Positions 5,625 to 9,696 of a DNA stretch of 32,000 nt are shown one piece after another (position 1 is the first letter of the stretch; every line of letters begins with the position of its first letter). Source of the DNA: Chlamydiales bacterium (GTDB taxonomy: Bacteria > Chlamydiota > Chlamydiia > Chlamydiales > JAAKFR01); NCBI GenBank assembly GCA_041395025.1, contig JAWLBH010000001.1:1230001-1262000 (forward strand). Direction: 5' to 3'. The translations under genes and the position numbers were made by a program. The notes below the pieces were generated by a model that saw only the letters and a list, made by a program, of their open reading frames with translations, was not told the origin of the DNA and did no database searches.

Positions 5625-6068
5625 TTAATCAACAAAGAGTTCAATCGCATTAGTCCATTTCCTCATAAAGAGAAAATAACCAACCCCAATAAAGATGATT
5701 GCTAACATTCTTCGACCTACCGAAACCGTTGTTAATAACCCTCCGGTAAGGAAACCACCAGCTATAGCAATACAGCCAATTGACAATAGACTTATTATCA
5801 CGACAGAGGGCTTATTATCACGTAAATCATCTCGAAAAAAATGAGTTAGACAAAAGATTGCGGATAAACTTACCACACTGCTACCTAGAGCAAGACTAGC
5901 ATTAGAAAAGGCTCCAGTAGTTGCAGCAATAGCGATACCCACTAAGGCTAGACCTACAATTCCTTGTAATCCCTTTATAAAGATCTGGGTTTTTGGACCT
6001 TTTAGACAAGGGAAAAAACAATTATTTCTTTCTGCAAAATTGACTACCGGATTTATTCTTAATTCCAT
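5625..6068 (-). CDS. Array paralog P1: small 4-TM protein (two hairpin/bilobed hydrophobic units), Inc-like candidate
   Basis: 147 aa. Hydrophilic N-terminus of about 35 aa, then GIVGLALVGIAIAATTGAFSNASLALGSSVVSLSAIFCLTHFF, a charged loop RDDLRDNK, and a second TM pair. Confidence 0.7.
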   Translation of the reverse strand: MELRINPVVNFAERNNCFFPCLKGPKTQIFIKGLQGIVGLALVGIAIAATTGAFSNASLALGSSVVSLSAIFCLTHFFRDDLRDNKPSVVIISLLSIGCIAIAGGFLTGGLLTTVSVGRRMLAIIFIGVGYFLFMRKWTNAIELFVD

Positions 6069-6100
6069 TTTTTTACTTTATGAAAAATAATAATACATTA

Positions 6101-6125
6101 TTTTAACATAATATCATATTAATAA
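6101..6125 (-). promoter_or_regulatory. Conserved upstream motif of P1, a candidate promoter element shared with P3
   Basis: Plus-strand TTTTAACATAATATCATATTAATAA at 33-57 nt upstream of the P1 ATG. It closely matches 7318-7343 upstream of P3. Confidence 0.3.
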
Positions 6126-6336
6126 ATATAAAAATAATTAAAGAAGACAATATTCATTCCTATTAAGAGTAAATATAGAGAAAATCTATGGGAGGCTTTA
6201 TGGATAATTAATAAAGAATTTATGAGGTAGTTATAGGGGGAGAGGGGAGAAGGGTTTCGCGTGAATCCCTCTTTTTGTAAAATCGCAATAAGATGGCGCA
6301 GAGCTTATCAGAGAATAGGACGTTCAAGAAGATGGT

Positions 6337-6762
6337 TTATAGAGCATTAGCAAGTAATCTCTGCAGACCACCACAACAACAAATAGGAACTATCGCTACA
6401 ACTGGTCCGACTAATATAGATATCCCTAATTCAGTAGCAGTCACTAACCCTCCTGAAAGAAACAAACTAGCTAAGACAATAAAGGCAATTAAAACTATAA
6501 TATGTAAGGCATTTTTACTACTGTCTGATAACAAATGAATTAGAAGAAGGGCGCCGGATAAAACTGATACACTACTACCTAGAGCAACACTAGTATTAGA
6601 AAAGGCTCCAGCAGTTGCAGCAATACCAATACCTACTAAGGCTAAGATTGCAATCCCTCGTATTATGTTGATATCCTTCTGGATGGCTGGGCTTTTTAGA
6701 GAGGAAGAAAAGGAATTATTTGTTGTTACCAGAGGTGGCTGATCATTTGTTCCTACGCTCAT
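6337..6762 (-). CDS. Array paralog P2: small 4-TM protein, Inc-like candidate, with an ICCCGG tail
   Basis: 141 aa. GIAILALVGIGIAATAGAFSNTSVALGSSVSVLSGALLLIHLL, a second TM pair, and a CCC cluster near the C-terminus. Confidence 0.7.
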   Translation of the reverse strand: MSVGTNDQPPLVTTNNSFSSSLKSPAIQKDINIIRGIAILALVGIGIAATAGAFSNTSVALGSSVSVLSGALLLIHLLSDSSKNALHIIVLIAFIVLASLFLSGGLVTATELGISILVGPVVAIVPICCCGGLQRLLANAL

Positions 6763-6802
6763 TTTACTCCCAAAAAATTAAAAAACCCATATCCATGTCT
6801 TT

Positions 6803-7276
6803 TTAGAATGGGCCAGAGGGCGACGATCCATGGTGAATCACTTTCTTAGGATGCGATTGAGAAGAAACACAACAAGAAATAAGATAAATAATTCCAGTTG
6901 CTCCTGATAATCCCAAGACAATATAACCCGCCGAAACCGCTGTTAATAACCCTCCGGCAAGAAAACAACTAGCTACGGCAATAGAGCCAAGAGACAATAG
7001 AGTCATTGTTATGAAAGAGAATTTACGATTACCGAAATTACCCCGAAAAAAATGACCTGCACCAAAAATAGTAGCTAAACCAGCTACGCTTGCACCCAGA
7101 GCGATACTAGTATCAGGAAAGGCTCCAACAGTTGCAGCAATACCAATGCCTACTAGGGCTAACAATACAATAAATTGGATTCTTTTTATAAAATCTTGAC
7201 TTCCGTTTTTACTAACAGTGTCTTTTATAGTAGATCTTCTATCAATCGGATAATTTGTTGTGGGTCCTATCGACAT
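6803..7276 (-). CDS. Array paralog P3: small 4-TM protein, Inc-like candidate, with an SCC tail
   Basis: 157 aa and closest to P4. Shares FFRGNFGNRKFSFITMTLLSLGSIAVASCFLAGGLLTAVSAG. AGGAGG Shine-Dalgarno (SD) sequence 9 nt upstream of the ATG. Confidence 0.75.
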   Translation of the reverse strand: MSIGPTTNYPIDRRSTIKDTVSKNGSQDFIKRIQFIVLLALVGIGIAATVGAFPDTSIALGASVAGLATIFGAGHFFRGNFGNRKFSFITMTLLSLGSIAVASCFLAGGLLTAVSAGYIVLGLSGATGIIYLISCCVSSQSHPKKVIHHGSSPSGPF

Positions 7277-7317
7277 CCTCTTTTCCTCCTTTATAAAACG
7301 AAAAATTCTAGAAAAAG

Positions 7318-7343
7318 TTTAACATAATGTCTAATTAATAAGA
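7318..7343 (-). promoter_or_regulatory. Conserved upstream motif of P3, a candidate promoter element shared with P1
   Basis: Plus-strand GTTTAACATAATGTCTAATTAATAAG, flanked by two AAATTCTAGA copies that each contain a palindromic TCTAGA core. Confidence 0.3.
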
Positions 7344-7511
7344 AAAGAAATTCTAGAGGATTTCAAAAAAACAATAAAAATATTTAGCCTGAGTATGGGA
7401 AAACCTATGCGATGTTTGTTTTTAATTTGAAGTGCTATGAGTTAATCTTAAGAGGGAACACCAAGAGACATTTCATACATCTCTCTTTTGATAAAATCGC
7501 GATCAAATTCC

Positions 7512-7958
7512 CTATGAGCATATCATCTCACGAAATCTTTGACAACTACAACAACGAAAACAACCATACACTATTCCAGTTAATATTGATAATGCCAACA
7601 CCTTATCACCTGCCGAAACTGCTGTTAATAACCCTCCTTTTGCAAGAAAACAACTAGCTATGGCGATAAAACCAAGGGACAATAGGGTCATTGTTATGAG
7701 AGAGAATTTACGTTTACCCAATTTACCCTGAAAAAAATGACTTACCCCAAAAATGGTAGCTAAACCAGCTATACTCACACCCAAAACCATACTAGTATTA
7801 GAAAAGGCTTCATAAGACGCAGCAATACCAATACCTGCTAAGGCTAAGAGCATAATCACTTGCATTTTTTTTATAAAATCTCGATTTGTGTTTTTAGTTT
7901 TAAAACTACTGTTTACTTGATTAGGTAGTGAAGAATTTGTATTTTCGAGTATTGTCAA
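7512..7958 (-). CDS. Array paralog P4: small 4-TM protein, Inc-like candidate, with an FRCCSCQRF tail
   Basis: 148 aa. TTG start with an AGGAGG SD 6 nt upstream. Shares FFQGKLGKRKFSLITMTLLSLGFIAIASCFLAKGGLLTAVSAG with P3. Confidence 0.72.
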   Translation of the reverse strand: MTILENTNSSLPNQVNSSFKTKNTNRDFIKKMQVIMLLALAGIGIAASYEAFSNTSMVLGVSIAGLATIFGVSHFFQGKLGKRKFSLITMTLLSLGFIAIASCFLAKGGLLTAVSAGDKVLALSILTGIVYGCFRCCSCQRFREMICS

Positions 7959-8057
7959 GATAACCCTCCTTTATAAATAGGAAATAATTTTAAATCATTA
8001 TCGATTTAATAGGAATAAAAAATATTAATCAGATGTAATCTGGGTTATAGGGAAAAC

Positions 8058-8690
8058 CTATTGGGGATTTGTTTCTAATGGTGTTACTCGAAGGCCCGCT
8101 TTTAAGAAGATACGATTCAATTCTTTCTTGTCTTCGATTGAGAGATCATTATTCATTACAAATCTTTCCTGTAGACTTGGTATATTGAAAGGCATAGGTA
8201 AAATAAAGCCTCGGTCATTATTAGGTGCTGAATCGAAATTTTTTTCTTTAAAATGTCTACGGGATTTGAGGCCTTGGCGGGTTATAATAATCATAAAAAG
8301 AATATTTATAGGTAATGCTATCTGAAACCAAAGCGTGGCTACTGCAGTAACTGGTAAAACCCCTGTGAGTTGGACGATGCCAAGGATGGCCGGAAGGAAT
8401 ATGGAAAAGAGATTAAAGATAAAAAAAATTTTATTTTTTTTGAAGATTCCGTCGCTAGTAAGAAGAGCAAAAGAGAGATTGGCAACAGATACACCGATTA
8501 AAATTGCACCAAACGTAGATGTCGAAAGTTTTCCAAAGGCAGCGGAGATTACAATTGCGAGAAATACTAATCCAACCACTTTTGATATTTTCTGACTTGC
8601 CGCGCTCATTGTTGAATACTTAAGTCCATTTTCCTTTGCGTAATAACATAGAAAAGCAGATTCGACATCTTTTTCGGAATATAAAACCAT
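8058..8690 (-). CDS. Array paralog P5: divergent 4-TM member with a C-terminal soluble extension of about 70 aa
   Basis: 210 aa with the same TM1-TM2 / basic loop (GIFKKNKIF) / TM3-TM4 layout. The start is uncertain, and an internal Met (MSAASQK) is an alternative. Confidence 0.6.
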   Translation of the reverse strand: MVLYSEKDVESAFLCYYAKENGLKYSTMSAASQKISKVVGLVFLAIVISAAFGKLSTSTFGAILIGVSVANLSFALLTSDGIFKKNKIFFIFNLFSIFLPAILGIVQLTGVLPVTAVATLWFQIALPINILFMIIITRQGLKSRRHFKEKNFDSAPNNDRGFILPMPFNIPSLQERFVMNNDLSIEDKKELNRIFLKAGLRVTPLETNPQ

Positions 8691-9213
8691 TGAGTTAGAA
8701 ATTTTTTTTCTCCTACTAAGATAAATTCAAGGGTCATTTTTTGACTGAAAAAACAAAACATCTTCTTTAAAGAAGCTAGTGTATTTTTCCTCATACTAGA
8801 ATAGTTGTCAATTGTCTTTTTCTTCCCAAGTGTCCCAATGATTCGAAGGGTAAATCTGTAGTTATGGAATCACAGATTTCAAACCTACAGATTATTTTGC
8901 AGATTCTATCTAAGTTTTAGGCTTAAGAGGAGATACATTCTATCTATTTTTCTTTTTATGAGACAGATAAAATACGTTCATGGTGTTTGTAGGTATATCG
9001 AAGGATCGAGGTGACCATTTCAATAGCTTTTATTTTTAAATAGCGTTCTAAGAGAATACATTTTTAGATTGTAACAAATATTTGAGTTAGGCTGTTAGAT
9101 TGATAGACGATGGTCTTACAAGAAAATCGCATTTTATAAGTTTGTATATCAACTTCAGAAAAAGGATACGCTTTTTATTTCTCTTATGATGAGTCAGTGT
9201 GGAACAATTCGTT

Positions 9214-9696
9214 TTAATTAGAGTTAAATGATTGGTTAATATCTATTTTTTCTCTTGTATGTTCTTTGCAACATTTTCTAAATATCTCAGAAATGCATAA
9301 ACAAAAAAAAGGGCTTCCAATAAGAGATTTTCCTAATTGAGTGACTGTGATGAACCCTGAAATATGCATACTACCAAGTACGATGAAGCTTATCATAAGC
9401 AATGTTTGAAAAATTAGATAAATTTTACGTTTTTTAAATTCACCCATAGCTAAGGTAAATACAAAAGACAATCCAGATAGAGCGATTGTACTAATCCCTA
9501 AGGGGAGACCTGCAAAATATCCATAAGCTGCAGCTATGCCAATAAACAATAATGTTGAATTGACAATCATTCGAATCTTTCCTAGTTGTTCAGCTCTTTG
9601 GTTACTCGGAATACCATCTATTTCGAGTAAGCATTCTAAGTAGTTTTTGGTCATAGCTTCTAGCTCTCTTAGATCGCTTTGAGATGAGTGGCTCAT
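9214..9696 (-). CDS. Array paralog P6: divergent 4-TM member with a Cys-rich tail (CLCISEIFRKCCKEH)
   Basis: 160 aa with the same layout. Basic loop GEFKKRKIY, then ISGFITVTQLG in the position of GGLLTAVSAG. Confidence 0.65.
   Translation of the reverse strand: MSHSSQSDLRELEAMTKNYLECLLEIDGIPSNQRAEQLGKIRMIVNSTLLFIGIAAAYGYFAGLPLGISTIALSGLSFVFTLAMGEFKKRKIYLIFQTLLMISFIVLGSMHISGFITVTQLGKSLIGSPFFCLCISEIFRKCCKEHTREKIDINQSFNSN

Follow-up and report, generated by a model that had tools for sequence, protein, structure and literature searches.

Inclusion-membrane (Inc) proteins are the means by which chlamydiae control their vacuole and, to our knowledge, very few of them have been studied outside the Chlamydiaceae. 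Operationally, an Inc contains two transmembrane (TM) helices separated by a loop shorter than 30 amino acids (aa), lacks any conserved prokaryotic domain (COG, TIGRFAM, CDD) and is found only in chlamydiae (Dehoux et al., 2011, PMC3048545). A loop of 6 residues is listed for most Incs, four TM segments are listed for CT005, CT850, CT147, CT288 and CPn0266/0267, and clustered inc genes have been described (PMC3048545). Here we analyze a stretch of 32,000 nt, hereafter the window, from a metagenome-assembled genome (MAG) that NCBI names "Chlamydiales bacterium" (assembly GCA_041395025.1, contig JAWLBH010000001.1 of 1.32 Mb, positions 1,230,001–1,262,000), in which six genes, designated A to F, follow one another in the same orientation on the minus strand and span positions 5625–9696 of the window. 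The family to which they belong consists of small tetraspan membrane proteins, is lineage-specific and has been amplified in tandem in this uncultured chlamydia. From the sequence evidence presented below, we assign a probability of roughly one half to their being type III-delivered, Inc-type proteins of the inclusion membrane, with tails that might be S-acylated by the host.

The six open reading frames (ORFs), of 141–210 aa, are annotated in NCBI as hypothetical proteins. Locus tags were obtained for four of them (A, C, E and F, listed below), and we infer that B and D correspond to R3E91_05680 and R3E91_05690. The genes are as follows:

5625-6068, minus strand: gene A (R3E91_05675), 147 aa; loop RDDLRDNK; tail without Cys; two Cys before TM1 (NNCFFPC)
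6337-6762, minus strand: gene B, 141 aa; central loop weakly basic (SDSSKNA); tail ICCCGG
6803-7276, minus strand: gene C (R3E91_05685), 157 aa; loop RGNFGNRK; tail SCCVSS (within ISCCVSS)
7512-7958, minus strand: gene D, 148 aa; TTG start with the Shine-Dalgarno sequence AAGGAGGG; loop QGKLGKRK; tail CFRCCSCQRF..C
8058-8690, minus strand: gene E (R3E91_05695), 210 aa, the most divergent; loop GIFKKNK; unique C-terminal tail of ~70 aa, no Cys cluster
9214-9696, minus strand: gene F (R3E91_05700), 160 aa, the most upstream; TM core at residues ~44–134; loop GEFKKRK; tail CLCIS..KCCKEH

BLASTP comparisons revealed that A, B, C and D are mutually similar, with E values of 1e-16 to 3e-50, that F is similar to B, C and D (2e-6 to 5e-10) and that E is similar to F alone (4e-8). 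The membership of E is therefore transitive, because its BLASTP link runs only through F, and is confirmed by a hidden Markov model (HMM) of the family, which recovers E at 3.6e-32. These similarities are far above chance and the six ORFs are true paralogs. A preliminary description of the region, made from its letters alone, had proposed six consecutive, paralogous minus-strand ORFs of this size range; our coordinates, the BLASTP results and the family HMM agree with it on both counts. All the motifs that it quoted are likewise present in the translations, both in the body of the proteins (LALVGIGIAAT, GAFSNTS, RGNFGNRKFS, QGKLGKRKFS, GEFKKRKIY, GIFKKNKIF, GGLLTAVSAG) and in the tails (ICCCGG, ISCCVSS, FRCCSCQRF, CLCIS...KCCKEH).

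Kyte-Doolittle windows identified four hydrophobic segments in each of the six proteins. An AlphaFold2 model of C, built with 46 homologs (predicted local distance difference test, pLDDT, 77.8; predicted TM-score, pTM, 0.61) and used in place of a run with six sequences only (pLDDT 56), contains helices at residues 24–49, 57–77, 85–108 and 113–141, packed into a compact bundle in which the soluble parts are minimal. In the 46-member family described below, the first hairpin loop has a mean length of 7.1 residues and the second of 4.1, near the length of 6 listed for most Incs (PMC3048545). Hydropathy, the model of C and the family loop lengths support the two tight TM hairpins that had been proposed. 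A hydrophilic stretch of 30–45 residues precedes TM1 in all six proteins, with no signal peptide ahead of TM1 as judged from these hydrophilic N-termini, no dedicated signal-peptide predictor having been run. Ser, Thr, Asn, Gln and Pro contribute 11–16 of the first 25 residues in B, C and D, 7 in each of A and F, and 3 in E. The Ser/Thr/Asn-rich N-terminus ascribed to the whole array is therefore confirmed in B, C and D and only moderate in A and F, and E lacks it; the composition is suggestive of a type III signal in B, C and D only.

The content of Lys plus Arg and of Cys in the segments outside the helices, computed over the 46 members, was the following:

15 residues before TM1: Lys+Arg 12%, Cys 5.5%
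First hairpin loop: Lys+Arg 0.9%, Cys 0%
Central loop: Lys+Arg 36%, Cys 1.0%
Second hairpin loop: Lys+Arg 2.7%, Cys 0%
15 residues after TM4: Lys+Arg 17%, Cys 12.8%
Rest of the tail, beyond 15 residues: Lys+Arg 11.8%, Cys 0.2%

The distribution of Lys and Arg indicates that both termini and the central loop share one side of the membrane, and extends to the whole family the basic character that the preliminary description saw in the loop between the hairpins. Such a clean positive-inside pattern is typical of polytopic bacterial proteins, and it is a real possibility, and the main alternative to the Inc reading, that these are ordinary, lineage-specific inner-membrane proteins, inserted by Sec/YidC with their termini in the bacterial cytoplasm, whose Cys bind metal or sense redox, or that they are small structural or regulatory subunits of an envelope complex; their tiny soluble parts do recall accessory subunits. 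Small residues abound in the helices themselves (Gly 15%, Ala 14%, Ser+Thr 13%), and GxxxG or GxxG is present in most TM2 and TM3 segments. Together with the compact bundle of the AlphaFold2 model, this composition would suit secreted Inc-type proteins that oligomerize through their Gly/Ala/Ser-rich helices to form a vacuole-membrane pore or channel, the tails being secondary. A Foldseek search of the model against the PDB retrieved only generic helical bundles, among them the TM domains of pentameric channels at an insignificant E value of ~0.8. We consider a pore improbable, since there was no significant channel match by fold or by sequence, the alignment has no conserved polar or charged residue that could line a pore, and small-residue motifs are also generic devices for helix packing.

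A Cys cluster is found directly past TM4 in four of the six proteins (B, C, D and F), the same four in which the preliminary description had noticed clustered tail Cys, and the Cys-rich tail is missing from A and E. The proposal that such clusters sit beside a membrane anchor is strengthened by the wider family, in which the enrichment past TM4, on the Lys/Arg-rich face, is general: at least two Cys occur at the end of TM4 in 30 of the 46 members, with a CC pair there in 22, and at least two also occur shortly before TM1 in 15 members, often as PKCC. Relative to a family mean of 3.4%, the excess after TM4 has a binomial p of 2e-25, a value that overstates independence because the 46 sequences are related. 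The position of the Cys is kept and their spacing is variable, a pattern better suited to lipidation sites than to a metal-binding motif. The lack of a conserved spacing likewise argues against the metal site called for by ordinary inner-membrane proteins. Chlamydiae are known for their Cys-rich envelope biology, which counts for such proteins; however, with the Cys on the cytoplasmic face, periplasmic disulfide networks are excluded for them.

No family in Pfam, NCBIfam, PHROG, PADLOC or the PDB matched any of the six array proteins, and in particular there was no match to IncA or to another Inc family of Pfam. Homology to a housekeeping membrane family, the observation that the preliminary description had set against its own proposal, did not appear in these collections. 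Among the Inc models of NCBIfam, the best was NF049907 (IncM), with an E value of 0.19 and a score of 10 bits, the cutoff of this model being 1000. There is no Pfam family common to the 46 members either; a match of D alone to Pfam YWFCY (E 0.005) and scattered matches of single members look like chance.

An exhaustive HMMER search of 1.84 billion representative proteins retrieved 46 sequences at E ≤1e-3, which comprise the six array proteins and 40 from other clusters, of 140–260 aa and with a common core; the family is thus not limited to this locus. Word-indexed protein searches with profiles of six and of 46 sequences returned almost only the array proteins themselves among the matches listed. 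A genome scan was seeded with a 10-sequence subset, the full 46-sequence alignment being too divergent; three family loci were found in the 185,579 species genomes scanned (two carrying a Chlamydiales label, one adjoining an ATP/ADP translocase) and three in 241 million metagenome records. Among sequencing runs, SRR28338161 alone was found to contain the array. Every labelled source of the family is a Chlamydiales MAG. The number of copies per locus was 1, 2, 2, 3, 4, 4 and 6, in differing neighborhoods, and the loci with several copies besides the array are:

L005: 4 tandem copies, between ntt and pgk
L004: 3 tandem copies, in the same place as in L005 (ntt-pgk)
L011: 4 tandem copies, all within one 2-kb contig
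L003: 2 tandem copies
L007: 2 tandem copies

In L004 and L005, which represent two other chlamydial genomes, ntt is the ATP/ADP translocase gene, and the ntt-pgk gap could be a second recurrent insertion site. Neither a partner gene nor a neighborhood was conserved among the family loci examined. This, the occurrence of homologs in only a handful of chlamydial genomes and a copy number that varies from 1 to 6 are all unfavorable to inner-membrane proteins of the ordinary kind. Most members end 10–30 residues past TM4, and long charged tails, helical or coiled-coil by eye, follow the four-TM anchor in P0012, P0018 and L003.

The array lies between two genes of a conserved backbone. The order uvrA-pyk-[X]-rsmE-lpxL-glycosyltransferase-dacA-folP-cydAB is kept in three related contigs (L012, L013 and L014), and only the gap between pyk and rsmE, which in the window corresponds to the variable interval 5468-9802, differs among them:

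3716-5467, plus strand: pyruvate kinase gene (pyk), conserved backbone, left edge of the variable interval
9803-10492, minus strand: gene for an RsmE-type RNA methyltransferase, conserved backbone, right edge of the variable interval
pyk-rsmE gap of the window: the six-gene array
pyk-rsmE gap of L012: empty
pyk-rsmE gap of L013: a gene for a 434-aa ankyrin-repeat protein
pyk-rsmE gap of L014: two small ORFs and a gene for a NACHT/HEAT protein of 1299 aa

Since the content of the gap differs among relatives, the array occupies a hot spot for variable cargo, and the cargo of L013 and L014 bears eukaryote-like domains. L013 and L005 are from one assembly; that genome therefore has the family in its ntt-pgk gap and an ankyrin gene between pyk and rsmE. 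A location in a variable hot spot that otherwise holds eukaryote-like proteins is again at odds with ordinary inner-membrane proteins. Small multi-TM proteins encoded in tandem within a variable island also resemble some holin or defense loci, and the six genes might in principle be phage or defense genes encoding holins, superinfection exclusion proteins or abortive-infection effectors. We rejected the holin and defense readings, which are now very improbable, because there were no matches at all to PHROG or PADLOC and the flanks are housekeeping genes, pyk and rsmE, with no lysin, integrase or other phage or defense gene nearby and no transfer RNA (tRNA) gene found in the window. As a separate observation, L014 encodes at 2830-3279 (minus strand) a 145-aa protein that starts with MSCC and combines a single bilobed hydrophobic domain with an acidic tail rich in Ser; this protein is Inc-like, with Cys at its membrane-proximal end, and falls outside the array family (E 0.41).

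The intergenic sequences of the array retain traces of its origin, and the main ones are:

6069-6336, minus strand: B-A spacer, homologous to the D-C spacer
7277-7511, minus strand: D-C spacer, counterpart of the B-A spacer; promoter-like site at 7333-7305
8691-9213, minus strand: F-E spacer, 523 bp, with no family remnant; inverted repeat at 8853-8893 and promoter-like TTGACA-17-AAAAAT at 8811-8783

The homology between the B-A and D-C spacers indicates that a two-gene unit of ~1.2 kb was duplicated. C and D are 83% identical in DNA sequence across 255 nt of their core, which suggests either gene conversion at a later time or an event of more recent date. We make no claim of an operon, because promoter and terminator scans of the array gave scores no better than those of shuffled sequence. 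The inverted repeat in the F-E spacer has 19 nt with 84% complementarity and a 3-nt loop, and lacks a T-run.

The ratio of nonsynonymous to synonymous substitution rates (dN/dS; Nei-Gojobori) among the paralogs A–D was 0.46–0.93, with ~0.7 for the TM core and ~1 for the termini, values that are rough given the few sequences and the AT-rich genome. Such high ratios speak against inner-membrane proteins of the ordinary kind. Along with the hypervariable gap and its ankyrin and NACHT cargo in relatives, they support the proposal of the preliminary description that these are host-interaction genes. Several pairs have a dN/dS close to 1 and the Shine-Dalgarno sequences of A, E and F are weak, as might be expected if the ORFs were spurious and functionless or decaying duplicates. 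This explanation is nevertheless scarcely credible: all six frames are intact, dN/dS falls below 1 in the TM core, and 46 diverged members from many assemblies preserve the layout of four helices together with the basic loop and the hairpin loops. Moreover, neither a seventh nor a degraded copy turned up in a six-frame HMM search of all gaps or elsewhere in the window.

Most of the operational definition of Incs can be evaluated from sequence, and every computable element was found here: two TM pairs with short loops per protein, no significant Pfam or NCBIfam domain in the six, a restriction to chlamydiae among the labelled sources, and a hydrophilic N-terminus without an apparent cleavable signal peptide in 6/6. 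The Inc-like nature put forward in the preliminary description is upheld to this extent; the double hairpin, which in combination with a Cys tail it could tie to no characterized family, is not new for Incs, since four-TM Incs were already on record (PMC3048545). If the proteins are Incs, the hydrophilic N-terminus would direct type III export and the two tight hairpins would insert into the host-derived membrane of the vacuole, so that both termini and the basic central loop would be exposed to the host cytosol. Lying at the edge of the membrane, the Cys clusters would then become open to host DHHC S-acyltransferases, and acylation might stabilize the proteins or sort them within the membrane. 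The short and fast-diverging termini, or the longer tails of some relatives, could contact host factors. We favor the Inc interpretation because of the hot spot, the recurrent amplification, the fast termini, the modular tails and the presence of Cys on what would be the host-cytosol face. These features point to an accessory, host-facing role rather than to a housekeeping membrane subunit. Additionally, two ORFs for FliN/SctQ-type (SpoA) proteins in the same window are counted in its favor, as possible parts of an export apparatus.

Several observations weigh against the proteins being Incs. The positive-inside pattern is equally expected of an ordinary Sec/YidC-inserted protein of the bacterial inner membrane. 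E and F have the most acidic N-termini, which are not Ser/Thr-rich, and in most members a soluble domain for binding host proteins is nearly nil. A dN/dS near 1 could equally reflect weak constraint. Most of the metagenomic homologs have no taxon label. Acylation would be without precedent in the class, because two broad reviews of Incs mention no lipidation, acylation or palmitoylation, and a full-text literature search found no paper on Inc palmitoylation. Lastly, Dehoux et al. (2011, PMC3048545) reported that a large share of predicted Incs escapes detection at the inclusion, an observation that also favors ordinary inner-membrane proteins and because of which the Inc label stays a prediction.

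The remainder of the window encodes mostly housekeeping functions, with uvrA, pyk, rsmE, genes for a lipid A acyltransferase and a glycosyltransferase, dacA, folP, cydAB, a cyo-type quinol oxidase operon and ileS. The nearest relatives of its pyruvate kinase are 68% identical, and all the named matches are from Chlamydiales or Chlamydiae MAGs or from Protochlamydia (54–55%). The following features were also recorded:

3-3677, minus strand: uvrA ORF of more than 1225 aa that runs off the start of the window; the UvrA proteins of relatives have ~1856 aa, about double the usual size
15620-18018 and 23133-27748, plus strand: cytochrome bd oxidase genes (cydAB) and the cyo-type haem-copper quinol oxidase operon, the latter with subunits II, I and III and a UbiA-family haem O synthase
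19460-20218, minus strand: 252-aa protein with no Pfam match, whose C-terminus resembles a SWIM-type zinc finger (CTCGQANCEH)
29030-29484, minus strand: full-length transfer-messenger RNA (tmRNA) gene (Rfam RF00023, 135.6 bits), not reported by ARAGORN
29516-30134, minus strand: adjacent, slightly overlapping ORFs of 137 and 74 aa, each with a FliN/SctQ-type SpoA domain (E 3e-19 and 2e-15)

The oxidases represent a fuller respiratory chain than that of the Chlamydiaceae, and the pair of SpoA ORFs may be a split or frameshifted component of a type III or flagellar C-ring.

Among described systems, the array is closest in organization to the clusters of small inc genes of C. trachomatis (incD-G, CT115-118; CT222-CT229) and to the expanded Inc paralogs of C. 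pneumoniae, which are also consecutive genes for products of 100–270 aa and, like the array family, were expanded in a lineage-specific manner (PMC3048545, PMC3290821). In both cases a hydrophilic N-terminus of 30–45 aa is followed by a tight TM hairpin, with a loop of ~6 aa in the clustered Incs. These have one hairpin, whereas the array proteins have two back to back, and we detected no sequence similarity between them; likewise, the clustered Incs have been secreted and localized experimentally, whereas the array is known from its sequence. The predicted or known four-TM Incs CT005/IncV, CT850 and CPn0266/CPn0267 do contain two bilobal domains per protein, as in the array, and so do CT147 and CT288, in which the hairpins are far apart. 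The segments of CT005, [34-54]6[60-81]5[95-119]6[124-146] (PMC3048545), are spaced much like the helices of C, and CPn0266 and CPn0267, with consecutive gene numbers, appear as one ortholog group in the published table (PMC3048545). However, CT005 and CT850 have C-terminal regions of more than 200 aa past the last TM segment, far longer than those of most array-family members, and homology to them is unsupported because the exhaustive HMMER search gave no match of the length of either. CrpA (CT442), a 15-kDa Cys-rich Inc of C. trachomatis with 150 aa and a bilobal domain (PMC3048545), is small and rich in Cys like the array proteins, but has two TM segments instead of four and no sequence match to them. 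The kind of gene is therefore already known, since both four-TM Incs and clustered inc genes are documented; the novelty lies in the sequence family and in its Cys signature.

For this signature, the nearest parallels lie outside the Incs. The type III effectors SspH2 and SseI of Salmonella and the AvrPphB family of Pseudomonas are S-palmitoylated by the host, whose enzymes acylate their Cys and so fix their membrane location. Those effectors are soluble and bind the membrane through the lipid, whereas the array proteins are already integral, so that a putative acylation would tune sorting or stability instead of anchoring. Tetraspanins and similar eukaryotic tetraspans are palmitoylated on juxtamembrane Cys, and their layout of four TM segments, short cytosolic termini and Cys clustered where TM1 and TM4 reach the cytosolic face of the membrane recurs here (12.8% Cys after TM4, 5.5% before TM1). 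The large second extracellular loop, the CCG motif and the family profile of tetraspanins are absent, the array loops having 4–7 residues and zero Cys and the proteins no Pfam match, and the resemblance is an analogy of layout only. It is doubtful, though conceivable by this analogy, that these would be the first Inc family built for host S-acylation, that is, compact tetraspans with Cys at the cytosolic edges of TM1 and TM4 that are lipidated by DHHC enzymes following type III delivery and, in environmental chlamydiae, either organize ordered microdomains of the inclusion membrane in the manner of tetraspanins or form oligomeric pores in it. Were they ordinary bacterial membrane proteins, the finding would be of minor interest. 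In either case, the pyk-rsmE gap is a useful marker, a hot spot where related genomes swap effector-like accessory cargo. As Incs, the family offers a compact, purely membrane-embedded candidate with a testable family-wide feature, the membrane-edge Cys clusters, and host S-acylation of an Inc, if shown, would be a new way for chlamydiae to sort the proteins of the inclusion membrane.

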